The notes: generated by a model not told the origin, from the sequence alone. A stretch of DNA of 64,000 nucleotides from an uncultured Actinomycetota bacterium (GCA_963773765.1 CAVZCC010000001.1:18901-82900); one strand, 5' to 3'; numbered from the stretch's first letter, positions 7,711 to 23,273 are shown. Numbers and translations are program-made.

Positions 7711-9509
7711 TCAGGTGGTTCCGTCGGTCCGCACGACCCGCGTGCCGGGGAAGCCGGGCTCGCCGCGCCAGCGTTCCAGGTACCCGGCGTAGTCCATCAG
7801 GCTGCCGGTGTAGACCAGGTTGCGGGCCGCCTTGGGGTCGTCCCCCTGTTCGGCGTTGTAGTAGCCGGGCGTGCAGTTCCGTGAGTAGTCGGCGATCTGG
7901 CCGGCCACGCCCAACAGGATGCCGAGCCATTCCTCCTCCGCCTCCGGGGTGGCCTCGATGGTGGCGACGCCCTGCTCCTCGCAGGTGGCGATCAACCACG
8001 CCACGTGCTTGGCCGACTCCGACAGGAAGTGCAGGAAGTTCGTGCCGAAGCCGGCCTGCACGAGGCTGATCATCATCAGGTTGGGGAACTCGGCGGAGAG
8101 GATGCCGTGCAGCGTGTGGGCGCCGTCGTGCCACCGCTCGCTCATGGCCACGCCACCCCGTCCCACGGGGTCGAAGCCGAGCCGGCGGTCCAGGTCGGTG
8201 GTGACCTCGAACCCGGAGGCGAAGACGAGGACGTCGACCGGGTACTCGATGCCGTTGGCCACCACCCCCGTGGCGGTGATCCGCTCGACACCCCGGCCGT
8301 CGGTGTCGACCAGGTGCACGTTCGGGCGGTTGAACGACGGCAGGTACTCGTCGTGGAAGCACACCCGCTTGCAGTGCTTGCCGTACCAGGGCTTGAGGAG
8401 GGCCGCGGTGTCCGGGTCCTCGACGAGGTCGTCCACCCGCTGTCGCAGGGCCTCCATGGTCAGGAAGTCGGACCGCTCCAGCTCGGCCGCCGCGTCGGCC
8501 GAGTCGGCGGCGGTCTGGGTGTCCTCCCACATGACCTCGGTCCAACCGTCGCCGACGAGGTCCCGTTCCGGCTTGCGGCCGGTGACGGCCTGGGTGAAGT
8601 TGCGGACCCGCTCCTGGTGCCACCCGGCCGGCAGGCTGCGGAACCAGGCCTCGTCGGTGGGGCCGTTGTCGCGCCGGCCGACCGCGGACGGCGTGCGCTG
8701 GAAGACGTAGAGCTCCTCCGCGGTCTCCGCCACGCGGGGCACGACCTGCACCGCGGTGGCACCGGTGCCGATGATCCCGACCCGCTTTCCCCGCAACTGC
8801 TCCAAGGGCTCCTGCGGCCCGCCGCCGGTGGACCCGTAGTCCCATCGGCTGGTGTGGAACGCCCGGCCCCCGTAGTCCTCGATGCCCGGGATGCCCGGGA
8901 GCTTGGCCTTGTGCAGGATGCCGCCGGCGGTGACCAGGTACGTGGCCGACAACTCGTCGTGCCGCGCGTGGTGGTCACCCGCCACCGCTGTTGGTCCTCC
9001 TGCCACTCCGCGGCGGCCACCTCGGTCTGGAACAGGGCGTGGGGGTACAGGTCGTAGTGCCGCCCGAGCAGTTGGCAGTAGGCGAAGATCTCCGCTGCGC
9101 CCGCGTACTTCTCCGTGGGCATGTAGCCCGTCTCCTCCAGCAGCGGGAGGTAGGTGTACGACTCGACGTCGCACATGCAGCCCGGGTAGCGGTTCCAGTA
9201 CCAGGTGCCACCGAAGTCGCCGGCCTTCTCCACGATCCGGATGCCGTGGACGCCACGGGCCTTCAGGTTGATGGCGGCGAGCATGCCGGCGAACCCGCCG
9301 CCGACGATGACCACCTGGGTCTCCTCCACGACCGGGTCCCGGGTGAAGCCGGGTTCGACGTACGGGTCCCGGTCGAATGCCGCGTACCGGCCGGCCAGCT
9401 CGGTGTACTGGGCCAGGCCGTCCGGGCGGAGTCGCTTCTCCCGCTCCTGGCGGTACCGGTCCTGTGCCGCCGCCATGGACGGTGACGGGCCGGTGTCGTG
9501 CTGGTTCAT
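7711..9509 (-). CDS. Baeyer-Villiger (class B flavin) monooxygenase, paralog 1; single frameshift near 8955
   Basis: N-terminus MNQHDTGP...[17 protein letters not shown]...[23 protein letters not shown]...[10 protein letters not shown] (ORF 8460-9911 frame), then [13 protein letters not shown]...[10 protein letters not shown]...[10 protein letters not shown]...[11 protein letters not shown] (ORF 7711-9552 frame). Confidence 0.65.
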
Positions 9510-9614
9510 CGGTGGTCCCTCGACGTGGCGCATCCGAGCGCTGGGCAGGCACAAGTTAGGCCGCCCGTCCGCCGGGGTGGTTGCGTAGCGGACGAATGAC
9601 GCCGTCCCTACGAT

Positions 9615-11491
<1,877 letters not shown>

Positions 11492-11495
<4 letters not shown>

Positions 11496-12160
11496 CCACG
11501 CACCGGGGGGAGCCCGACCTGGACGCCGGCGGGTTCTCGACCTGGCTGCGGGAGGTCCGGGCCGCCCTGGACGGTGACGACGGGACCGACGTGCCCTGTG
11601 GCTCCTGCACGGCCTGTTGCCGGTCCTCCCAGTTCGTCCACATCGGGCCGGACGAGACCGCGACGCTGGCCGTCATCCCGGCGGAGCTGCTGTTCCCCGC
11701 GCCCGGCCTCCCGGCCGGCCACGTGCTGATGGGCTACGACGGCCAGGGGGCGTGTCCCATGCTGACCGAGCGGGGCTGCTCCATCTACGACCACCGCCCC
11801 CGCACCTGCCGCACCTATGACTGCAGGGTGTTCGCGGCCACCGGGGTGGAAGCGGATGACGACAAGCCCCAGATCGGCGACCGGGTCCGGCGCTGGCGCT
11901 TCACCCACCCCAGCGAGGACGACCGGGCCGAGCACGAGGCGGTGCGCGCCGCCGCCGTGTTCACCTCCGCGCACGCCGATGCGTTCCCTCCTACCGCCCG
12001 CCCGGCCAACGCCACGCAGCGTGCCGTGCTGGCCGTGGAGGTCGCCGACGCGTTCCTGCGCACCGACGCGTCGAGCGGGCGCACCACGGTGACCGCGCCG
12101 TCGGTCGACGAGGTCCTGGTGGTCCTGGACCGACGTCGACGGGCCCGTCGGTCCGCCTGA
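11492..12160 (+). CDS. YkgJ/UPF0153 family Fe-S-binding protein (CxxCxxCC)
   Basis: MTTHRGE...CGSCTACCRSSQFVHIGPDE...ACPMLTERGCSIYDHRPRTCRTYDCR. ATG at 11492 overlaps the TGA of the BVMO2 remnant (ATGA). Confidence 0.65.
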
Positions 12161-12187
12161 CTCGTGCGTACCCGTCCTGACCCTGCG

Positions 12188-12517
12188 TCAGGCCGGTCGG
12201 CGTCGCTTCCTGGGCACGGGACAGGCGCCTCCGGCCTGCTGCGCACGTCGGAGAAGTCGGAAGCCGTACCCGGTGCCGAGCAGCCAGGCCGCGGTGACGA
12301 CGGCTCCCGCCGTCCAGGCATGGTCCCGCAGGACGGCACCGGCGGACGTGCCGGCCAGGACCGTGGAGACCACGGCCAACGTCAACGGCAGGTGGCACGG
12401 ACACAGGATGAACGACCCGAACACCCACCACCGGCCCCTGCGTTCCAGCGCGGCACCAAGGACCGGTGCACTGGTCGGGGAGTGGTCCGTCAGGTGGCCG
12501 GTGGGTCGGGCATCCAT
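12188..12517 (-). CDS. small MerE-like membrane protein (CPCHLP motif)
   Basis: C-terminal portion of ORF 12188-13747: MDARPTGHL...WWVFGSFILCPCHLPLTLAVVSTVLAGTSAGAVL; resemblance to the MerE LTCPCHLP motif is from memory. Confidence 0.4.
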   Translation of the reverse strand: MDARPTGHLTDHSPTSAPVLGAALERRGRWWVFGSFILCPCHLPLTLAVVSTVLAGTSAGAVLRDHAWTAGAVVTAAWLLGTGYGFRLLRRAQQAGGACPVPRKRRRPA

Positions 12518-12588
12518 GCCCAGAGGATACCGGGTGGGGTATCCGGCTCCGAGCGGGTGGCCGAGGATCGTCTCAGCCGTCGGCTCCC

Positions 12589-14124
12589 TCAGCTCATGGC
12601 GGCGATGGGCTGCTTGGGCGGGAAGCGGCCGAAGGTGGAGAAGTGGTCCCGGATCCCGCTCGTGAAGCTGTCGATGTAGGCGAGCTTGCGGATCATGTAG
12701 CTGTGCTGCTCCTTGGGGTCGAGGTACAGGTTGTACAGCCGCCCGTGGGAGTACTTCTGCGTCACCCCGGTGAACCCGCCCAGGTTCAGGCAGTCGCGGT
12801 CGTCGTCGGAGGTCGAGGCGACCATGAACTTCCACTCGCCCACCCGCAACGCGGAGAACACGTTCGTGAGCCAGTAGTAGAGGTACTTGCGGTTCGACTC
12901 GCCGTCGGGGTCCAGCAGGAACGACGTCTGGTCGACGCCGTCGATGTAGCGGTCCTCGGGGATGGACCCCGCCGCGCCGGCCAGCGTTGAGGATCGTGTT
13001 GAACAGGTCCATCTGGGAGAACAGCCCGTCCGAGGCCCGGTCCGCGGTGATCATCCCGGGCCAGGTGAGGATGCCGGGCACGCGTTGGCCCCCTTCCCAG
13101 GTGGACCCCTTGGCGCTGCGGAACGGGGAGTAGGCGGCGTCGGGCCAGGTCTCCATCTCCGGTCCGTTGTCCGACGACAGGAAGACCAGGGTGTCGTCCA
13201 TCTGGCCGGTCGCCTCCAGCTCGGCCACCAGGCGCCCGACGATGTCGTCGAGCTCGATGATGGTGTCCTTGTAGGGATGCTTGGCGGGCGACGTCCCGAG
13301 GTAGCGCTCGTGCGGGTAGTTGTCGAAGTGCGCACCGCGGGTGCAGTGGTAGAGCAGCCAGGGCCGGCGGTCGGCCGGCGCCGGCGCGGCCATCCGGCGG
13401 ATGAAGTCCAGGGAGTACTCCGCCCAGCGGTCGTCCAGGAGTGACAGCACCGGGATGGTGACCTCCTCGACCTGTTCGGTCTCCCCGCCCCGGGTGGCGT
13501 GCACGAAGCACTTGTTGAACGGGAGGTTCTCCACCCACCGGGTCCGTTCCTCGCTGTAGACGATCTCCGGGAAGAAGTACGGGTCCCGCCACTCGGTGTA
13601 CATGTCCGACACCGACAGGAACCCGTAGAAGTCGTCGAAGCCGACGTGCTGGGGCTGGGACTCGACGTTCTCGCCCGATGTGCCACTTGCCCACGGCCTG
13701 GGTGATGTAGCCGGCGGCGGAGAGCAGCTGGGCCAGGGTGACCTCACCGTCCAGGCCGCCCGGCTGGCCGTACATGGGGGGACGGAGCAGCCCGTGGCGC
13801 ATGGGGAGGCGACCGGTCATCAGCGACGCCCGTGACGGCGTGCAGGAGGGCTCCGAGTAGCACGACGTGAGCAGGAGGCCGCGCCGGGCCAGCCGGTCGA
13901 TGTTGGGCGTCGGGGCGCCGACCGCGACGCCGCCGCCGTAGCAGCCGAAGTCCCCCCACCCCACGTCGTCGAAGAGGATGATCAGCACGTTGGGCCGCTT
14001 CCCGCCGGCGCCGTAGGCGTCCAGGGCAGCAGCGGCCCGCTCCTCCTGGCCGGCCAGGACGAAGTGCGGTTCCAGGCTCCGCCGGGCCTGGACCGTCTCC
14101 GCCACCACTGGATCATGTGCCATG
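12589..14124 (-). pseudogene. arylsulfatase (formylglycine-type, CxPxR); 2 frame changes (near 13680 and near 12870)
   Basis: MAHDPVV...[19 protein letters not shown]...[19 protein letters not shown]...AVGKWHIG (ORF 12786-14975 frame), then [19 protein letters not shown]...[10 protein letters not shown]...[13 protein letters not shown] (ORF 12188-13747 frame), then C-terminus ...VGEWKFMV... (ORF 12589-12861). Confidence 0.65.
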
Positions 14125-14218
14125 ACTGGACCCCCTTGCGGGGCGACTCTAGGACGCCGGAACCGGTGGCGAGGCCCGTCCCCGGCACGCACACCGGGCC
14201 CTTGGCCCATCCGCTCGG

Positions 14219-15043
14219 TCAGTCGATGGTGACGTCGCCCGGGAGCTCCCGGGCGGCCAGGCCCCGGAACCGGTTGGCCACCTGATCGTCGTAGCTGGGC
14301 CGGGTCGGGATCACGAACGTGCCGTCTCGGATCGCGTCCAGCACGGGGTCGACCACCTCGTCGGGGTGCAGGCCCGTGGCGACCATGCCGGCCAGGATCT
14401 CGCTCACCACGGGCCCGGTCCCGGTCCGGTCCACCCCGAAGCGCCGGGGGCGGACCGCAGCGGTGCGGGCGATGCCGGTGTCGACGGCGCTCGGGACCAG
14501 CACCGATGCCCCGATGCGGGACCCGACCGAGCGCAGGTCGTGGGCCAGGCACTCGGTCAGGGTGAACGCGGCGGCCTTGGACACGATGTAGGGGGCCGAC
14601 AACGGTGCGGCCACGATGGCGGCCACCGATGCGGTGTTGACCACGTGGCCGTCGGTGCCCTGGTCGATCATCCGGGGCACGAAGGCCGCGATGCCGTGCA
14701 CGATGCCCATGACGTTCACGCCCAGGGCCCAGTCCCAGTCCGCCGGGGCCGGCTCCCACGTGCGGCCGCCCTGGAACACCCCGGCGTTGTTGCACAGCAG
14801 GTCGACCGTGCCGAACGCGGAGAAGGCCTCCTCGGCCAGCGCGGCGACCGAGGCCGCATCCGACACGTCGACCTGGACCGCCAGCCCGCCGGCCGAACCG
14901 GCCGTGGCCCGCGCCCCGTCGCCGTCGATGTCCGCCGCCACCACCCGCATGCCCTCGGCCGCGAACCGGCGGCACATGGCCGCGCCGATCCCGCTCCCGG
15001 CACCGGTCACCACCGCCACCCTGCCCGCCAGTTCCTGCAGCAT
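14219..15043 (-). CDS. short-chain dehydrogenase/reductase (SDR), intact
   Basis: [23 protein letters not shown]...NNAG...YIVSKAA; only the C-terminal 274 aa of ORF 14219-15943 is real. Confidence 0.8.
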
Positions 15044-15078
15044 CCCTGCCTCCTCCTGCGTCCCTCGGTCGATCCGTG

Positions 15079-16552
15079 TCAGGCCGTCGCCGGCGGGGCG
15101 GGCCGGCGACGTCGCATCCGGTAGCGCCACGCCGGGAAGACCCTGGTCCGCAGCCAGTAGCGGGCGCCGCTGTCGGGCAGCTGGGTGACCACCTTGCCCG
15201 ACGGGGCCCGGAAGTAGTTGTTGCACCCGGCCACCCAGACCGTGTCGGCCAGGTCCGCCTGGAGACGCCGGTTGTAGCGGTCCATCACCCCCCGGCGCAC
15301 GTCGACCGCGCCGATCCCGAGTCGGTGCATGGCCCGCAGGGCGCCCATCACGAAGTGGGCCTGGGCCTCGTGGAAGAAGATGATCGAGTTCACGCCGTTG
15401 GTGTTGGGGCCGTAGAGGAGGAACAGGTTCGGGTACCCCGCCACACTCAGCCCCAGGTAGGCCTCGGCGCCGTCGGCCCAGTCGTCGTGCAGGCGGCGGC
15501 CGCCCTCGCCGATGACCTCGATGGTGCTGAGGTACTCGTCGGCCCGGAACCCGGTGCCGTAGATGATCGTGTCCACCTCGTGGAGCTCGCCGTCGGCGGT
15601 GCGCACCCCGGTCCCGGTGATCTCCGTGATCGGTGCGGTGACCAGGCGCACGTCGGGCCGGGTCAGGGTGGGCAGCCAGGTGCGGGAGGTGAGCGGCCGC
15701 TTGCACCCCACCGGGTGCTCCGGCGTGAGCGCGGCACGCAGGTCCGGGTCCGCCACCTTCCGCTCCAGGTAGGAGCGGGCCAGCCCGGTCAACATCCGGG
15801 TCTGGTCGGAGTCGAGCCCGAAGTCGGCCCGCTGGAACGTGAGCCAGATCTGGAAACGGTGCCAACGCGCCGCCAGGGGCACCCGGTCGAACCGGCGTTG
15901 CTGCTCCCGGGTGTAGGGCTGCTCGAAGCGCGGGGTGACCCACACCGGGCTGCGCTGGAACACCGTCAGGTGCTCCACCTCGTCCGCGATGGCGGGCACG
16001 TACTGGATGGCGCTCGCTCCGGTGCCGATGGAGGCGACCCGCTCACCCGCCAGCGCCTTGGTGTGGTCCCAGCGCGGCGGAATGGAACGCCCGGCCCCGG
16101 AAGCGGTCGGCTCCGGGGATGTCGGGGATGTTCGGCACGTTGAGCATCCCGAGGCCACTGACCACCACGTCGGCGGTGAACCGGTCGCCGGATGCCGCGG
16201 TCAGGTGCCAGAGCTGGTTCCCACCGTCCCACCGGGCCTCGGTGATGGCGGTGCCGGTGCGGACGTGTGGTCGGACGCCGTACTGGTCCGTGCATCGCTC
16301 CAGGTAGGCCAGGATCTCGGGCTGGGAGGCGTAGGTCCGGCTCCACCACGGGTTGAGCTCGAAGGAGTACGAGTAGAGGTGCGACGGGACGTCGCAGGCG
16401 GCGCCGGGGTAGGTGTTGTCCCGCCAGGTGCCCCCCACGCCGTCGGACTTCTCGTAGATCGTGAAGTCGTAGCCGGCCCGCTTGAGCCGGATGCCCATGG
16501 CGATGCCGCCGGCGCCGGCGCCCAGGACCGCCACGGTGGGCCGGTGGCTCAC
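15079..16552 (-). CDS. flavin-containing monooxygenase (FMO, class B); one frameshift near 16075
   Basis: GTG start [23 protein letters not shown]...[25 protein letters not shown]...GRAFHSA (ORF 16043-17074 frame), then [24 protein letters not shown]... (ORF 15079-16158 frame). Junction reads ttccattccgccgcgctgggac; deleting one base restores FHSARWDH. Confidence 0.65.
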
Positions 16553-17004
16553 GCGCGCCCCATGCGCTCGAGGTTGGCCGCGGCCCCGGTGTCCACCAGT
16601 TCCACCACCACGCCGTCGGGGTCCACCACGGTGCACATGTCGATGCCGTGGACCTCGATCCGTCGGGGCTCGCCCCCCAGGCCGAGCCCGGCCAGCCGCT
16701 GCAGCGCGGCGCCGACGTCGGTCATGACGGACAGGAGCAGGATGCCCGGCCCGGGCGCGGGACCGTCGGCAGGGCCGGCCGGGACCGGTCCGAGGTCGAC
16801 CAGTTCCACGATGCCGGCATCGGGCAGGTCGGCGCGGCCCAGGAACACCGCCCGCAGCGAGGTGGACGGGGCCCGGAGGAGGGTGGGCCAGTCGCCGGAG
16901 AACCGCTGGTCCAGGAGGACCTCGAAGCCCAGGCCGTCGCGCCAGAACCGGAGGCTGGCCTCCATGTCGCGGACGCAGATGGCCGAGTGGTGTACGACTG
17001 GCAC
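16549..17004 (-). CDS. VOC/glyoxalase-family protein, intact
   Basis: MPVVHHSAICVRDMEASLRFWRDGLGFEV...; its TGA overlaps the GTG of the downstream FMO (GTGA). Confidence 0.65.
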   Translation of the reverse strand: MPVVHHSAICVRDMEASLRFWRDGLGFEVLLDQRFSGDWPTLLRAPSTSLRAVFLGRADLPDAGIVELVDLGPVPAGPADGPAPGPGILLLSVMTDVGAALQRLAGLGLGGEPRRIEVHGIDMCTVVDPDGVVVELVDTGAAANLERMGRA

Positions 17005-17098
17005 GGTCCCCCTCTCCGCCGGCCCGGATCGCCGGCCGGCCGTGGGCCTCCCCCGGCCGTCCGTTGTAGCCCACCGGCAGTGCCCGGGGCGGGTTTCC

Positions 17099-18327
17099 TC
17101 AGACCTCGTCCGGCACCCCGTACGCCGTCTGGTAGCGGCTGAAGCGTGCCCGTTCCGCCACCGGGTCCAGGCCGGTGTCGGCCAGGGCGTACCGGTGGGT
17201 GCCGCGGGCGTCCTTGGGCCGGGCGGCCACGTAGTCCGTCACCGCGGCCCGCAGCTGTGGGGGAACGTCGATGCCGAGGCGATCGTGGATGCGGCCGACG
17301 GTGCCCGCCGGATCCTCCATGAGGTCGGAGTAGCGGACGTCGACGAACCGCTCGTCGGGGAGCGCGCCGGATGCCCGGGCGTCCATGGTGTCGTCCAGCA
17401 TCATGGCGTAGCCCAACGAGACCCAGGGCACCAGGGAGTCCACGTCCACGGTCCCGCAGCGCATGGACCGGAGCGTGCCCATCAGGCTGATGGTGGACGG
17501 CACGCTCTTGAGGGGGTCGCGGTGGATCTGGACCACCCGGGCGTCGGGGTAGACCGCGAACAGCGTGCGGAGCTGTCCCAGGTGGCTGGGGGCCTTGAGG
17601 ACCCAGCGCCGGGCCGGGCGCCGGCGCTGGAGCGTCTGCAGCACCTTGCGGTGGTACCGGTAGGCCTCGGTCTGGTCCGTGCCGACCAGGTGGGCGGAGT
17701 AGGAGGGGACCTCGAAGGTGCCGCCCCACTGGTCGGAGAGGAACTCGAGCATGGTGGCGAAGATGCATTCGTTGGGCTCGTCGCCGTGGTTGTGGTGCAT
17801 CGACTCGTAGGCGGGCTGGAGGTCGGCCCAGAAGGCGTGGACCTGGTGGCCCAGCCGCCGCGCCGTGTCGGGGTCCGTGAGCGCCTCGCCGGGGTGGAGC
17901 AGCTCCCAGGTGGCCGGCGTCCGCGCGGTCGGATCGAGCGACAGGAGCTCGTGCAGGATCGAGGTGCCGGAGCGGCCGGTGCCCACCACGAACACCGGCT
18001 CGGCGATCTCCTCGTCCAGGATGGACGGGTCGGCGTCCCACAGCGCGGCCAGGAGCAGGCGCTGGCGCAGCGCCCGGACGAGCTCGGTCCGGGCCACGAT
18101 GCGGCCGGCCAGCGTGAGGTCGGCCTCGGTGCGCAGCGCGCTGACCAGCACGTCGAAGTGCGGCCGCCAGGTGTCCCCGCCGAAGTCGGCCAGGCCGGTG
18201 GAGCGGCGTGCCGCGTCGAGCAGGTCCTCGGGCTCGAGCGAGACCAGGTACCCGGCACCGCCCACGGCCTCGCCGTGGGCGTTCAGGCGCTCGACCCAGT
18301 CGGGCGGGGTGGGCGGGGTCCAGGGCA
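17099..18327 (-). CDS. sulfotransferase family protein, intact
   Basis: MPWTPPTPPDW...PVFVVGTGRSGTSILHELLSLDP (PAPS 5-prime-phosphosulfate-binding type motif); rest of ORF 17099-18607 upstream of this Met looks non-coding. Confidence 0.65.
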
Positions 18328-18341
18328 TGCCGGGCCTCCGT

Positions 18342-19535
18342 TCAGCTCCAGCGCCGCTGCGCGGCGCGTGACCGGTCGGCGAGCTGGCGGCGGCGCGCCT
18401 CCGGCGTGATGGCCGGGTGGTCATGGGGGAGCCGGGCCCGCAGGTCCGGGACCGGGACCATCGTCGCCGTGGGCTGGGGCCTGGTGGCGGCCCCCACGTA
18501 GCGGTACACGGCCATGCCGATGGGTCGGCCCTCGGTGTCCAGCCAGTTGGGGACGCCCGGGTCGACATGGGAGATGACGATGCGCACCCGGCCGTCGCCG
18601 TCCACATGGGCCTGCCGGCCGTTGCAGCTCATGAGGCGCTGGTCCCAGTCCCCGGAGTCGAACCAGTGCAGGTTGTGGATCGACCAGTTCCAGTACCGGG
18701 CGTCCGGTTCGTCGTGCTCGACCAGCAGTGCCTGGCCCTCCGGTAGGTCCCAGCACCCGCCGCCGTAGGCGATGCTCGGGGCGCCGCCGGGCGGGGTGGT
18801 CGGAGGGGTGAACGTGTTGTGGGCCAGCAGGTCCCGGGTGGCGGCCACGTAGGCGGCCCAGAAGTCGATGGACCGGTCCACCCACCGCCCGGCCCGGTCC
18901 AGCGCCCCGGCGACGCCGTCGGGCGTGGGCGGCGCCGCGGGCTCGCCCGAGGTGTCGGTGCGCTCGATGCTGAACGACACCACCGGTTCCCGGTCCCAGT
19001 CGTACAGGTACTGGCGGATGAGCAGCATCCTGACCCCGGCGGCGGACCGCAGGTGGTTCCCGGGCCGGTCACCGGGGCCGATGGACAGCTCGAGGGTGCC
19101 GTCGCCGTCCACGGCCAGGTCGCTCAGGGCCACCTCTGCGTACACGTCGTTCTGGTCCAGGTGCATGTCGCCCTGGACCAGGGAGAACAGGGCCTCGTGC
19201 GCGCCGTGGACCCGACCCCGCAGCACGTAGGTGGCGTCGGGGTCGATGGCGCAGCGTTGGTACACGTTGTCCGGGTTGGGTGCGCCCCACTGCGACCACG
19301 GAAGTTCGTAGCGGTGCAGGCGCGGGTGGAGGGGGTCCGCGTGCTCCAGTTCACCCTGCAACGCCAGGCCGGCCTGCCGGGCCAGGTGGCGGATCCCCTC
19401 GGCCCGGCCCCGGTCGTCGGTGGGGAAGTGGTCCTCGGTGAGGCGGGTCGACAACCCCTCCAGGGTGGCGGTCCAGCGGGCCCAGGCCTCGCCGGCGGGA
19501 TCAGCGCCTGAACCGGGGGTGGGTGCCGATGGCAT
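18342..19535 (-). CDS. DUF1214/DUF1254-type protein, intact
   Basis: 397-aa ORF; ...RYWNWSIHNLHWFDSGDWDQRLMSCNGRQAHVDGDGRVRIVISHVDPGVPNWLDTEG... typical of that family (from memory). Confidence 0.5.
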   Translation of the reverse strand: MPSAPTPGSGADPAGEAWARWTATLEGLSTRLTEDHFPTDDRGRAEGIRHLARQAGLALQGELEHADPLHPRLHRYELPWSQWGAPNPDNVYQRCAIDPDATYVLRGRVHGAHEALFSLVQGDMHLDQNDVYAEVALSDLAVDGDGTLELSIGPGDRPGNHLRSAAGVRMLLIRQYLYDWDREPVVSFSIERTDTSGEPAAPPTPDGVAGALDRAGRWVDRSIDFWAAYVAATRDLLAHNTFTPPTTPPGGAPSIAYGGGCWDLPEGQALLVEHDEPDARYWNWSIHNLHWFDSGDWDQRLMSCNGRQAHVDGDGRVRIVISHVDPGVPNWLDTEGRPIGMAVYRYVGAATRPQPTATMVPVPDLRARLPHDHPAITPEARRRQLADRSRAAQRRWS

Positions 19536-19613
19536 GGGGGGAGTGTTGCAGCACCGCCGTGACCGCGCCGGGCATCACCGCGGACCGGATGGTGCGGGTG
19601 GGACAATCCTGCG

Positions 19614-21218
19614 GTGACGTCCGACGGCTCCACCGGTCCACCGACCGTGGCCGGCCGGGGCGGGGGCACGGCGCCGGCGCGGGCCGGGCTCATCCTGACC
19701 ACGCTGATCCTGGGGGCGGTGGTGGCCAACATCAACACGTCGATCTCCAATGTGGCGCTGCCGTCCATCGGGCGGGCCCTCCAGGCGACCGACACCCAGC
19801 TCACCGGCATCACCGACGCCTACCAGTTCGGCATCGCCGCCACGGTGCTGTACCTGGGCGCCCTGGGGGACCGGTACGGCCGTCGCCGGCTGCTGGTGCT
19901 GGGTGCCTTCCTGTGCGTGCCGCTGTCGTTGCTGTCGGCCTTCGCGACGTCGGCCTCCATGCTCATCGCCGCACAGGTGGGAGTGGGCGTCGCCGGGGCC
20001 ATGCTCTACCCGACCACCCTGGCGCTGATCTCGTCGCTGTGGAGCGGGCCCAGGATGACCCGGGCGATCGCCCTGTGGGCCGGTGTGGGACTGGGCACCT
20101 CGGTGCTGGGGCCCATCCTCGGCGGGTGGCTGCTGGACCTGGTGTGGTGGGGTTCGGTGTTCCTCATCACCGTGCCGTTCGCTGTGCTGGTGCTGGTCCT
20201 CGGCATCCTGGTGCTGCCCCGGCACGCAGGTGAGAACGCCGATCCGGTGGACCACCCCGGCGGCGCGTTGTCGGTGGTGATGATCGCCTCGTTCGTGATG
20301 GCCATCGTGCTGCTGCCCCAGGGGGTCACCCCGACGGTGGGCGCGCTGGTGGCCGTCGCCGCGGTGTCCGGCGTGCTGTTCGTCCGACGGGAGCACCGGG
20401 CCGACAACCCGCTGTTCGACCTGCACGCAGCGGCGGTCCCCACCTTCTGGGTGGCCTTCGTGGCCGGCCTGGTCGCGTTCGGTGCCCTGGTGGGCGGCAT
20501 GTTCATCGGCCAGCAGTTCACCCAGAACGTGCTGGGGGAGACGCCCCTGGTCGCGGTGCTCCTGACCCTCGGCCTGGCGGTCGGCATGCTGCCGGCGTCG
20601 GTGGTGGGCGGCCGCATGGTGGAGGCCCGGGGGACCCGGGTGACCTTCATGGCCGGCCTGGCCCTGATCGGGGCCGGGTTCACCGAGATGCTCATCTCCT
20701 GGAGGCCCGGGACGTCGTTGGTGTGGGTGGTGGTGGCCTACCTGCTCGTGGGTGTGGGGATCGGCCTGTCCGCCACGCCGGTGTCCCGGTCGCTCAGCGC
20801 ATCGCTGCCCATCAGCAAGGCGGGGATGAGCTCGGCGTCGGTGGACCTGACCAAGGACCTGGGTGGCGCCGTGTTCCAGGCGCTGCTGGGCACCCTCCTG
20901 GCCATCGCGTACAGCAAGTACTTCCGTGCCGCCTTCGCCGAGCTGCCGACGGCGGAGGCCCAGGCACTGGGCAACCGGGCCGCGCTGGAGATCGGGTCGT
21001 CCTACGAGGGGGCCGAGGCGGTGGCCAGGACACTGCCGTCGGCGGACTCGAAGCAGTTGGTCGACGCCGCCATGCGGGCCTTCACCGACGGCAAGGAGGT
21101 GGCGATCGCCTTCGCGCTGGCCTCGGTCCTGGCCGGGCTGGGCCTGGTGTGGTGGAAGTACCCGCGCCTGGATGAGGAGCGACGGATCATCGCCGGCATC
21201 CGGGGCGTGGACGGCTGA
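19614..21218 (+). CDS. MFS transporter, DHA2/EmrB-QacA-like, 14-TMS, intact
   Basis: 534-aa ORF with GTG start; ...LGALGDRYGRRRLLVLGAF... and multiple hydrophobic helices. Confidence 0.8.
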   Translation: MTSDGSTGPPTVAGRGGGTAPARAGLILTTLILGAVVANINTSISNVALPSIGRALQATDTQLTGITDAYQFGIAATVLYLGALGDRYGRRRLLVLGAFLCVPLSLLSAFATSASMLIAAQVGVGVAGAMLYPTTLALISSLWSGPRMTRAIALWAGVGLGTSVLGPILGGWLLDLVWWGSVFLITVPFAVLVLVLGILVLPRHAGENADPVDHPGGALSVVMIASFVMAIVLLPQGVTPTVGALVAVAAVSGVLFVRREHRADNPLFDLHAAAVPTFWVAFVAGLVAFGALVGGMFIGQQFTQNVLGETPLVAVLLTLGLAVGMLPASVVGGRMVEARGTRVTFMAGLALIGAGFTEMLISWRPGTSLVWVVVAYLLVGVGIGLSATPVSRSLSASLPISKAGMSSASVDLTKDLGGAVFQALLGTLLAIAYSKYFRAAFAELPTAEAQALGNRAALEIGSSYEGAEAVARTLPSADSKQLVDAAMRAFTDGKEVAIAFALASVLAGLGLVWWKYPRLDEERRIIAGIRGVDG

Positions 21219-21332
21219 GGCTCGACCGCCTCGACGACCCGATGGGGCGGGCCGGGGAAACGCGTAGTGACTACGCGGGTCAGGCAACCGCCCCGTGGCG
21301 GACACTCCCTCCAGACGTCCAGGAGGAGTGCA

Positions 21333-22727
21333 GTGGGAACCAACAGCACGGGAAGCCGTTGCAGGGGTCGTGTCCGGACCGGAGCGGGGGCGGTGGTCGC
21401 AGTGGCCGCGTTCCTGGTGTCGGCCTGCACGCCCGGGACGCAGGGGCCGCCGTTCCCCGGGACCACCCAACGGGTGAGCCTGGCCACGGCCAACACGCAG
21501 ATCGAAGGCGACTCCCTCGGCGGGGCGCTCAGTGACGACGGCCAGTGGGTGGCCTTCAGCACCCTGGAGGACCTGGACCCGGGCGACACCAACGGCCTGA
21601 CGGACGTGTACGTGCGGAGCCCGGAGGACTTCACCACCCGGCTCATGACCCCGTCGGTGTTCGGGCCGACGAACGGCGCTTCCGTCGACGTGAAGATCAG
21701 CGGCAACGGCAAGAACGTCACGTACACCACGACGGCGTCGTCCATGAGCTTCTCCGACGGCAACGGCGTGGAGGACGTGTACTTCACCAACGTGCTGGCC
21801 GGCGTCCCGTTCCCCGTGAGCGTGGTGGACGGACTGTTCCCGACCTTCGGCAACGCCCGCTCCTACGGGGCGGTGCCCAACCTGGACGGCAACGTGATCG
21901 CCTTCACGACCGACGCCGGCAACCTGGCACCCGGTGACGCCAACGGCCAGAGCGACGCCGTGGTCAAGGACATGGTCACCGGTGCCATCTCCCTGGTCAG
22001 CGTGTCCAGCGCGGGGGTGCAGGGCAACCTGCCGTCGTTCGTGGCCGACATCTCCGGGGACGGCCGGTACGTGGTGTTCACGTCGCTGGCGAACAACCTG
22101 GTGCCGGGCGACACCAACGGCGTGCGCGACCTCTTCCTGCGGGACCGCCTGGCCGGGACCACCAACCGGGTCAACCTGTCGTCCACGGGGGCCCAGGACA
22201 CGACCTCGTCCGGGCCGTTCCTCAGCGGCGCCAAGGTGTCCGACGACGGCCGCTACGTGTCGTTCCACTCCTCCGCGGCCATGGTCCCCGGTGACACGAA
22301 CGGGTTGCACGACGTGTACCGCCGGGACATGGTCGCCGGGACCACGGCCCGGGCCAGTGTCCCCAACGGCGGCGGTGAGTACGACCAGGTGGCCTACGGG
22401 GCCGACATGAGCAACGACGGCCGCTACGTGCTGTTCCTCCTGCGGGAGGCCGGGTTCGCCGACGGCGGCCTGGGCGTCGTCGCTGACATGGCCACCAACA
22501 CGGTGACCACCGTGACGCTGCGTTCCGGCACCGACGTGGTGTCGTCCACCACCGTGGCGGACCCGCCCGACATCCCCATGCCGGTGTTGGTGTACCGGTT
22601 CGCGGGCTACTCGCCCGAGCTGGCCCTGTCCGGGGACGGCCGGTTCGCCCTGTGGGGCACCGCGGCGGAGGCGCCGGGTGACACCAACGGCGGACTGGAC
22701 GTCTACCGACGGTGGTGGCGGCCCTGA
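21333..22727 (+). CDS. PD40/TolB-like beta-propeller repeat lipoprotein
   Basis: Six or more repeats of the SDDGRYV(A/S)F....PGDTNG..DVY(V/R)R type; signal peptide plus lipobox AVAAFLVSAC. Start moved from ORF-track 21267 to in-frame GTG 21333, which has AGGAGGA 1-7 nt upstream. Confidence 0.6.
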   Translation: MGTNSTGSRCRGRVRTGAGAVVAVAAFLVSACTPGTQGPPFPGTTQRVSLATANTQIEGDSLGGALSDDGQWVAFSTLEDLDPGDTNGLTDVYVRSPEDFTTRLMTPSVFGPTNGASVDVKISGNGKNVTYTTTASSMSFSDGNGVEDVYFTNVLAGVPFPVSVVDGLFPTFGNARSYGAVPNLDGNVIAFTTDAGNLAPGDANGQSDAVVKDMVTGAISLVSVSSAGVQGNLPSFVADISGDGRYVVFTSLANNLVPGDTNGVRDLFLRDRLAGTTNRVNLSSTGAQDTTSSGPFLSGAKVSDDGRYVSFHSSAAMVPGDTNGLHDVYRRDMVAGTTARASVPNGGGEYDQVAYGADMSNDGRYVLFLLREAGFADGGLGVVADMATNTVTTVTLRSGTDVVSSTTVADPPDIPMPVLVYRFAGYSPELALSGDGRFALWGTAAEAPGDTNGGLDVYRRWWRP

Positions 22728-22844
22728 CCGGATCGGCCGGACCCGGTCGTGGATGCCCGTTCTCGTGACATCCGAGGTTGCCGGGCCGTACGAGATGTCA
22801 CGAGTTCGTGGGGGCGGCGCCACGGATCACCCGTGCGGCCGAAC

Positions 22845-23273
22845 TCAGGCCGAGTAGACGATGTGGACGGTGCAGGGCGAGTTGTGGGCGATGCGGGACG
22901 GCAGGCTGCCGATCACGAACCGCTTCATCGAGTTGAGCCCCACGTTGCCGACCACGAGCATGTCCGCGCCCACCTCCGTCGCCACGTCCACCAGGGCGTC
23001 CACCGGGTCGCCCTGCACCGGGTGGGTGGACGCCTCCACGCCCGCCACCTTCGCCCGGGATGCGGCGTCGGCCAGCACGGACTCGACGTGGTCCAGCGAG
23101 CCCAACCGGCCCGCGAACTCCGACGGGACGTCTCCGGCCCGGACGGGCTTCTTGCGGTAGGCGCTCACGATGTGCAGGTGCTCGTCGAGCGCCCTGGCCA
23201 GCCGGATGGCCTCCAGCACCGCGGTGGTGGCGGACTCCGATCCGTCCGTGCCGACGACCAGCGGTCGATCCAT
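22845..23273 (-). CDS. universal stress protein (UspA family)
   Basis: MDRPLVVGTDGSESATTAVLEAIRLA...MLVVGNVGLNSMKRFVIGSLPSRIAHNSPCTVHIV. Confidence 0.7.
   Translation of the reverse strand: MDRPLVVGTDGSESATTAVLEAIRLARALDEHLHIVSAYRKKPVRAGDVPSEFAGRLGSLDHVESVLADAASRAKVAGVEASTHPVQGDPVDALVDVATEVGADMLVVGNVGLNSMKRFVIGSLPSRIAHNSPCTVHIVYSA

Follow-up and report, generated by a model that had tools for sequence, protein, structure and literature searches.

Do seven genes that follow one another closely on the same strand make up one pathway, or one neighbourhood? The question is raised by positions 12188-19535 of a 64,000-nucleotide stretch of DNA from an uncultured Actinomycetota bacterium (GCA_963773765.1, CAVZCC010000001.1:18901-82900), hereafter the window. 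On its minus strand, a gene for a protein with a DUF1214-type fold (gene 1) precedes those for a sulfotransferase (gene 2), a VOC/glyoxalase-fold protein (gene 3), a flavin monooxygenase (gene 4), a short-chain dehydrogenase/reductase (SDR, gene 5), a sulfatase (gene 6) and a MerE-like membrane protein (gene 7). A sequence-only reading of the window had seen here an operon for a sulfated small molecule or sulfolipid, in which sulfation, desulfation and redox tailoring would be combined. Our analysis points to a different answer: the region is probably a mosaic of separate modules, juxtaposed in this lineage only around a conserved two-gene sulfation module (genes 1 and 2), and the frameshifts that interrupt two of the genes are most likely errors of assembly.

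Conservation of the gene neighbourhood

With an alignment of 22 sulfotransferase homologues we retrieved 49 distinct loci, flanked by as much as 10 kb; they come from Acidimicrobiia, Myxococcota ('Deltaproteobacteria') and one Spirochaetales metagenome-assembled genome (MAG). One of them (L040) begins at the sulfotransferase, so that the upstream gene can be assessed in 48. A homologue of gene 1 lies immediately upstream and on the same strand in 47 of these; in the exception (L023) it is found 8 kb from the sulfotransferase. When the open reading frames (ORFs) of all loci were clustered, just gene 1 and the sulfotransferase, plus antisense shadows, were present in more than 11 loci, and a third conserved partner emerged neither from this clustering nor when Pfam families were counted in 89 ORFs downstream and 83 ORFs upstream. 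Minor neighbour families, partly inherited within lineages, are SDR (5), EamA (5), major facilitator superfamily (MFS; 6), ABC (6), Sap/SfLAP (4) and DUF4230 (4). In about 33 of 46 loci, the sulfotransferase gene and the ORF 3′ of it lie on opposite strands. VOC proteins account for 2 of the 89 downstream ORFs.

The five genes downstream of the pair join it solely in L001, a public contig that is 99% identical to window positions 12186-20161 and carries the same seven genes. None of the 48 other loci has the VOC, monooxygenase, sulfatase or MerE-like gene downstream of the pair, even at about 80% sulfotransferase identity (L029, L046, L051). Near the sulfotransferase, a single sulfatase was matched among the 49 loci, weakly and on the opposite strand. 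The same picture is obtained from the sulfatase side, in a survey of 80 metagenome loci (L052-L131) that carry orthologues 70-90% identical to gene 6: none has a sulfotransferase, gene 1, VOC or MerE-like gene nearby, no neighbour of the sulfatase is conserved among them, and the matches found there are generic SDR and MFS proteins and one weak (29%) monooxygenase. Co-occurrence of a sulfotransferase with a formylglycine sulfatase is thus indeed uncommon, as the sequence-only reading had stressed; this rarity reflects a pairing that is not conserved.

Divergent from the run stands a gene for an MFS efflux pump. L001 lacks window positions 20162-22749 (2.6 kb), where the C-terminal two-thirds of the pump protein are encoded together with the greater part of the next gene, for a 486-amino-acid protein; this gap is either a deletion or an assembly difference. 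The pair persists in L001 although the pump is truncated there, and the pump is thus not an obligatory partner. What is conserved is the unit of gene 1 and the sulfotransferase. The seven-gene set, for which a conserved-neighbourhood analysis had been proposed as a check, is specific to this species-level lineage, because the five downstream genes are not shared beyond L001, the sulfatase is independent and the pump is truncated in L001.

The sulfotransferase

The product of gene 2 matches the Sulfotransfer_3 profile (PF13469) with 127.7 bits, for a cut-off of 27, and the motif read from the sequence is confirmed in this way. The suggested Stf-like subfamily was also borne out: homology to the crystal structures of M. 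tuberculosis Stf1 (PDB 2ZQ5, E 2e-40, residues 35-396) and M. avium Stf9 (PDB 2Z6V, E 2e-38, residues 34-404) is full-length and includes the N-terminal helical region. GTGRSGTS aligns with GLVRTGTT, the 5′-phosphosulfate loop (GxxRSGT(S/T)), and HRDPLKSVPS with HR-PVETIMAS, the 3′-phosphate motif (HRDP...S); residues R119-S123 and H269-P272/S278 are invariant in the 22 homologues. Gene 2 is, as predicted from these alignments, a sulfotransferase of the Stf1/Stf9 type using 3′-phosphoadenosine 5′-phosphosulfate (PAPS). We know of no acceptor for Stf1. The gene starts 13 nucleotides past the stop of gene 1 and is preceded by a GGAGG ribosome-binding site.

Gene 1 and its family

Gene 1 encodes a cytoplasmic protein with the DUF1214-type double beta-sandwich fold, shared with solved DUF1254/DUF1214 proteins. 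It is 28% identical to M. tuberculosis Rv3531c over 357 residues (E 6e-32, hhalign probability 99.8%), and matches the B. cenocepacia structure 6ANS with E 6e-43. The DUF1214/DUF1254 label that it had first received holds for the fold and not for the profiles: no Pfam family is matched even at E<=10, neither DUF1214 (PF06742) nor DUF1254 (PF06863). Some homologues, 54-76% identical, do match PF06742; DUF1254 was matched by neither gene 1 nor any homologue scanned. Like gene 1 in their fold, 6ANS and the Vibrio DUF1254/DUF1214 proteins VPA0106 and VPA0735 have no known function, and no functional study of 6ANS, DUF1214 or DUF1254 proteins was found in the literature searched.

A profile search of 1.84 billion representatives gave 3692 members of the gene-1 family, among which fused proteins are found. 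In P0366, a single frame of 963 amino acids on a 130-kb contig joins a lipid-binding SRPBCC/Polyketide_cyc2 domain, a Sulfotransfer_3 domain and a gene-1 domain; a TetR gene follows this fusion gene. P0362 carries a gene-1 domain fused to a SnoaL_2 (SnoaL/NTF2) domain. P0373 and P0386 look like further DUF-sulfotransferase fusions but were not relied on, since they stem from error-prone contigs or are garbled in the middle.

Some homologues of gene 1 have no sulfotransferase nearby and sit instead in steroid-type catabolic clusters, in N. aromaticivorans (plasmid pNL2), Novosphingobium strain P6W and Sphingobium. The gene-1 family is therefore broader than its partnership with sulfotransferases. 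On pNL2 (L135/L137), the homologue, annotated DUF1214, has an SDR on one side and an extradiol dioxygenase on the other, with cysQ at a distance of 4 kb; it adjoins a steroid-type block with a FadD3-family ligase, a steroid delta-isomerase, thiolases and acyl-CoA dehydrogenases.

The pair in distant bacteria and its known relatives

A search with Stf1 led to a locus of the M. tuberculosis complex in which a gene for an Rv3531c-like protein (375 amino acids, no Pfam match) is followed by an SDR (260 amino acids) and by Stf1 (384 amino acids). Stops and starts overlap within this trio, which adjoins kshA, and M. kansasii has the same layout. The conserved pair of the window is matched, as judged by sequence homology, by this KstR-controlled Rv3531c-Rv3530c-Rv3529c (stf1) operon. 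In both, homologous genes for a gene-1 protein and a sulfotransferase are tightly arranged on one strand, with gene 1 upstream and the sulfotransferase last. In the mycobacterial operon, the SDR (Rv3530c) stands between the two genes, whereas in the window they are 13 nucleotides apart and the SDR comes three genes downstream of the sulfotransferase, with 26% identity to Rv3530c, a generic similarity. A KstR operator lies upstream of Rv3531c and its binding was positive (Kendall et al. 2007, PMC1995591), and the Rv3531c-Rv3529c genes are located inside the cholesterol-catabolism region (PMC6429209). Unlike in the M. tuberculosis operon, no match to the KstR-type operator TnnAACnnGTTnnA was found in the window, nor were genes for steroid catabolism recognised beside the window pair.

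Related arrangements exist further away. Tsukamurella has a hypothetical-SDR-sulfotransferase trio beside cysD and cysC. A Paraburkholderia sprentiae plasmid carries, all on one strand, an alcohol dehydrogenase (ADH), DUF1214, sulfotransferase, VOC, CysQ, CysD and CysN genes; the gene-1 homologue (28% identical), the sulfotransferase (32%, E 1e-53) and the VOC gene follow the order of window genes 1-3. This cluster differs by having its own genes for PAPS supply and recycling and by lacking a monooxygenase, a sulfatase and a MerE-like gene, and its VOC protein shows no detectable similarity to that of the window. In Croceicoccus, the sulfotransferase and gene-1 genes overlap, and Sphingomonas paeninsulae has a VOC-DUF1214 pair with a sulfotransferase-SDR pair 4 kb off. 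One Myxococcales contig (L036) bears, with its primary pair, a second sulfotransferase/gene-1 pair, 30% identical and in reversed order. Membrane genes of the Sap/SfLAP family (PF11139, 'sulfolipid-1-addressing protein') are found just upstream of the pair in four Acidimicrobiales/Microthrixaceae loci.

Another two-gene sulfation unit is known from M. tuberculosis, where cyp128-stf3 is reportedly linked to the sulfated menaquinone S881 (work of Mougous in 2006 and later). It could serve as a model, since there too a Sulfotransfer_3-type enzyme is associated with one upstream gene that would prepare a lipid acceptor. The partner in cyp128-stf3 is a cytochrome P450 hydroxylase, whereas in the window it is a DUF1214-fold protein without known chemistry.

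Genes 1 and 2 represent an old, conserved two-gene unit, in which gene 2 would move sulfate from PAPS onto a hydroxyl group in the cytoplasm. By analogy, the acceptor would be a lipophilic alcohol of the steroid, isoprenoid or lipid type. Gene 1 could bind and present this acceptor or perform a coupled chemical step, and an SDR or ADH, where present, would supply or remove the hydroxyl. The lipid or steroid class of substrate is suggested by context in distant relatives: the KstR regulon, the steroid clusters, the SRPBCC and NTF2 fusions and the upstream Sap/SfLAP genes. It is possible, and we propose it tentatively, that Rv3531c-like DUF1214-fold proteins are dedicated partners, perhaps subunits, of Stf1-type sulfotransferases, and that both form a widespread two-component system sulfating steroid- or isoprenoid-like lipids. 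Such a system would fit with the pairing across phyla, both gene orders, the adjacent PAPS-supply genes and the SRPBCC-sulfotransferase-DUF fusion. If true, the same two-component logic would also cover the unexplained M. tuberculosis stf1 operon, which belongs to the KstR cholesterol regulon.

The five downstream genes

Genes 3 to 5 may form an ordinary cassette, in which an alcohol would be converted to a ketone and then to an ester by the SDR and a Baeyer-Villiger monooxygenase, together with the VOC protein. The stop of the VOC gene overlaps the start of the monooxygenase gene (GTGA). The latter had been labelled as a flavin-containing monooxygenase (FMO); this is correct as to the flavin monooxygenase class, and the enzyme is more exactly described as a type I Baeyer-Villiger monooxygenase. 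It matches cyclohexanone monooxygenase in the PDB with E 1e-74, steroid and phenylacetone monooxygenases match too, and the corrected frame contains the FxGxxxHxxxWD fingerprint and the dinucleotide-binding motifs GAGAGG and GTGASA. The window is, besides, rich in oxygenases. The SDR is PRK06194-like (NCBIfam, E 5e-80). In M. branderi, an SDR comes after a monooxygenase with 57% identity to that of the window, and a Burkholderia homologue of the monooxygenase is fused to an esterase; the SDR of the window shows generic similarity only to that of M. branderi as well as to Rv3530c.

The sulfatase is a stand-alone, strongly conserved gene of the Cys type. It matches PF00884 with 192 bits, contains in its corrected frame the C-x-P-x-R motif as CTPSR and is homologous to the arylsulfatase of PDB 7AJ0 (E 4e-112). 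In the 80 loci surveyed, most orthologues match essentially the full 510 amino acids, the rest being cut by contig ends. No signal peptide was apparent when the N-terminus was read by eye (no predictor was used), and the enzyme is for this reason probably cytoplasmic. Amino acid identity reaches 85-90% with genes on contigs of 62-74% G+C (guanine plus cytosine) with unrelated neighbours; conservation this high suggests either very strong constraint or horizontal transfer.

In the case of the MerE-like protein, PF05052 is matched with 30.7 bits for a cut-off of 22.8, and the NCBIfam MerE equivalog with 33.6 bits, below its cut-off of 80. Two hydrophobic segments span residues ~31-61 and 67-88, with the CPC motif in the first. 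No mer gene (merR, merA, merT/P) was present in the L001 gene calls or in the window ORFs examined around it, and it stands beside a sulfatase in L001 only. Gene 7 is an orphan small membrane protein.

The frameshifts

The window sequence does contain the frameshifts previously reported, of which one interrupts the monooxygenase and two the sulfatase. Over 7977 bases, the window and L001 differ by four indels: three extra bases in the window, each corresponding to one of the frameshifts, and one in L001, which matches window position 13729, within the sulfatase, where the window reads intact. When the three insertions are removed, both genes become uninterrupted, with 490 and 510 codons for amino acids, and the monooxygenase of L001 is an intact 490-amino-acid gene. 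The two sulfatase insertions have no counterpart in L001 or in the 80 orthologues. Programmed frameshifting was ruled out, the insertions being absent from the 99%-identical L001. Moreover, the sulfatases of the window and of L001 differ by 18 synonymous and 2 non-synonymous codon changes, a proportion that indicates purifying selection.

Interrupted genes are also frequent among the Nanopore-only loci surveyed. These come from the Microflora Danica (MFD) MAGs, which were assembled from Nanopore reads alone and received a single round of Medaka polishing (PMC12313526). Matches of tblastn to gene 1 or the sulfotransferase are split in 10 of 21 such loci, whereas the figure for the remaining loci is 0 of 28 (p = 4e-5). 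The likeliest cause of the three frameshifts, in the light of these comparisons, would be single-base insertion errors of long-read assembly, and all seven genes are consequently probably intact in the organism. It follows as a lesson that frameshifts in long-read metagenomes should be compared with close relatives before pseudogenes are called.

Alternative readings of the region

Several observations weigh against the mosaic. VOC and dehydrogenase genes recur near distant homologues of gene 1 and the sulfotransferase, and the VOC protein of the window is 30% identical to the one beside the gene-1 homologue of Novosphingobium P6W; the VOC and SDR genes of the window could belong with the pair. 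All seven genes run in one direction and are closely spaced, no terminator was detected, and both sampled strains keep the arrangement, so that co-transcription and some functional link may exist in this lineage. Neither a formylglycine-generating enzyme nor a PAPS-synthesis gene was found among the 20 other ORFs scanned in the window, and nothing in the Acidimicrobiia clade itself points to the substrate. Finally, the four indels that distinguish the window from L001 are all situated in the monooxygenase and the sulfatase (p ~0.02 under uniform error placement), and none lies in a homopolymer. This last point would agree with true pseudogenes, recently inactivated in this strain within a decaying cluster, and the neighbouring second monooxygenase gene is heavily broken as well. 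We nevertheless regard decay as very unlikely: L001 shows none of the window's insertions and has an independent one at another place in the sulfatase, the codon changes of the sulfatase speak for purifying selection, and split genes, common in the Nanopore-only MFD loci, do not occur in the rest.

The common direction of the genes, gaps of 13-95 nucleotides, the GTGA overlap, the lack of detected terminators, the arrangement kept in L001, the recurrent VOC and dehydrogenase genes, and the membrane proteins of MFS or Sap type that some loci have upstream of the pair would also agree with one seven-gene operon in which a sulfated small molecule or sulfolipid is made, tailored and recycled through sulfation, redox steps and desulfation, with export by the MFS pump. 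Conservation makes this improbable. None of the five downstream genes is found with the pair at 48 other loci, not even where the sulfotransferase is about 80% identical, sulfatase orthologues never occur near a sulfotransferase, the ORF after the sulfotransferase is mostly convergent, and L001 retains the pair while the pump is deleted. A catabolic operon, in which the sulfatase, SDR, Baeyer-Villiger monooxygenase and VOC protein would degrade a sulfated secondary alcohol or a steroid sulfate, the sulfotransferase pair being merely upstream, is in our opinion unlikely too. The chemistry of sulfatases, SDRs and Baeyer-Villiger monooxygenases is established, and a path from desulfation to ketone to ester would be biochemically coherent. 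A probably cytoplasmic sulfatase without visible signal peptide, the monooxygenase-SDR pair of M. branderi, the monooxygenase-esterase fusion of Burkholderia and the oxygenase-rich window all accord with it. On the other hand, only one of the 80 sulfatase loci has a monooxygenase nearby, and a weak one (29%), the SDR matches are generic, 95 nucleotides separate the SDR and sulfatase genes, and the cluster is without an esterase.

We thus retain the mosaic: the region belongs to the known but uncharacterised sulfation modules of the Rv3531c/Stf1 type, beside unrelated lineage-specific neighbours. The proposal of an operon combining sulfation and desulfation finds no support in conservation, the set being shared with L001 only, and is of little consequence as such. 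More useful, as a by-product, is that Stf1-type sulfotransferases have a conserved partner in an uncharacterised DUF1214-fold protein, a pairing which reaches M. tuberculosis (Rv3531c, Rv3529c).

Anatomy of the run and its flanks

The seven same-strand genes described at the outset were confirmed by third-position G+C and by Pfam and NCBIfam searches (Table 1). By third-position G+C, minus-strand coding is unbroken over the whole run, the frame shifting at every gene boundary and at three places inside genes. Profile searches upheld the names given to six of the seven products (sulfotransferase, VOC, flavin monooxygenase, SDR, sulfatase and MerE-like). Short gaps with a single GTGA start-stop overlap were found as announced: from gene 1 to gene 7 the spacings are 13, 94, -4 (GTGA), 35, 95 and 71 nucleotides. 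The divergent efflux pump was likewise recovered at its place. Three proteins of the window, looked up by exact sequence, had no counterpart on record. We infer the transcription units of the run. At the 72% G+C of the window, signal searches were uninformative: consensus scans yielded no sigma-70 promoters or intrinsic terminators, no Rfam match was obtained in 9000-23000, and the four longer segments between or flanking the genes did not fold better as RNA than shuffled sequences (z -0.4 to -1.8).

Table 1. Coordinates of the gene run, its frameshifts, its flanks and related features; positions refer to the window unless a contig is named
Feature	Position	Strand	Remarks
Gene 1, Rv3531c-like with DUF1214-type fold, 397 aa	18342-19535	-	
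Gene 2, predicted Stf1/Stf9-type (Sulfotransfer_3) sulfotransferase, 409 aa	17099-18328	-	PF13469 E 1e-36
Gene 3, single-domain VOC/glyoxalase-fold protein, 151 aa	16549-17004	-	PF00903 E 9e-10
Gene 4, type I Baeyer-Villiger monooxygenase, 490 aa after correction	15079-16552	-	Pfam FMO-like and Pyr_redox_3
Gene 5, classical SDR, 274 aa	14219-15043	-	PF00106 E 3e-40
Gene 6, Cys-type S1 sulfatase, 510 aa after correction	12589-14123	-	PF00884 E 1e-56; CTPSR
Gene 7, MerE-like small membrane protein, 109 aa	12188-12517	-	PF05052 E 3e-7; CPC
DHA2-family (LfrA/EmrB/QacA-like) MFS efflux pump, divergent	19614-21218	+	NCBIfam LfrA E 2e-73, EmrB subfamily E 2e-46
Inserted base, monooxygenase frameshift	16075	-	gap in L001 alignment; inside FxGxxxHxxxWD fingerprint
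Inserted base, first sulfatase frameshift	13673	-	gap in L001 alignment
Inserted base, second sulfatase frameshift	12985	-	gap in L001 alignment
Second Baeyer-Villiger-type monooxygenase gene	9615-11500	+	broken into at least 4 frames
486-aa protein	21267-22727	+	
Sap/SfLAP gene	L008 8057-8752		
Sap/SfLAP gene	L011 6698-7393		
Sap/SfLAP gene	L012 6692-7387		
Sap/SfLAP gene	L016 6709-7404		
Second sulfotransferase/gene-1 pair	L036 3210-5521	-	reversed order
P0366 fusion gene	L144 18-2909		963 aa
Gene-1 homologue region of pNL2	L135/L137 396000-418288		
Extra genes of L001	L001 16141-19743		3.6 kb

The second Baeyer-Villiger-type monooxygenase gene differs from L001 by about 13 indel events, with only 96% identity over 1.5 kb, against 4 indels and 99% identity in the adjoining 8-kb block. 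Either the gene is a pseudogene in decay or the consensus is locally poor. Synteny with L001 breaks 2 nucleotides past the MerE-like stop, that is at the exact 3′ end of the seven-gene run, and L001 has extra genes at about window position 12186 (a 358-amino-acid ORF, an AAA_16 protein and a guanylate-cyclase fragment). On the other side, the 486-amino-acid protein gave no Pfam or NCBIfam match. Its N-terminal segment is hydrophobic and precedes a Cys (AVVAVAAFLVSAC), and at least five repeats of the type PGDTNGxxDV(Y/F) can be recognized in it by eye.

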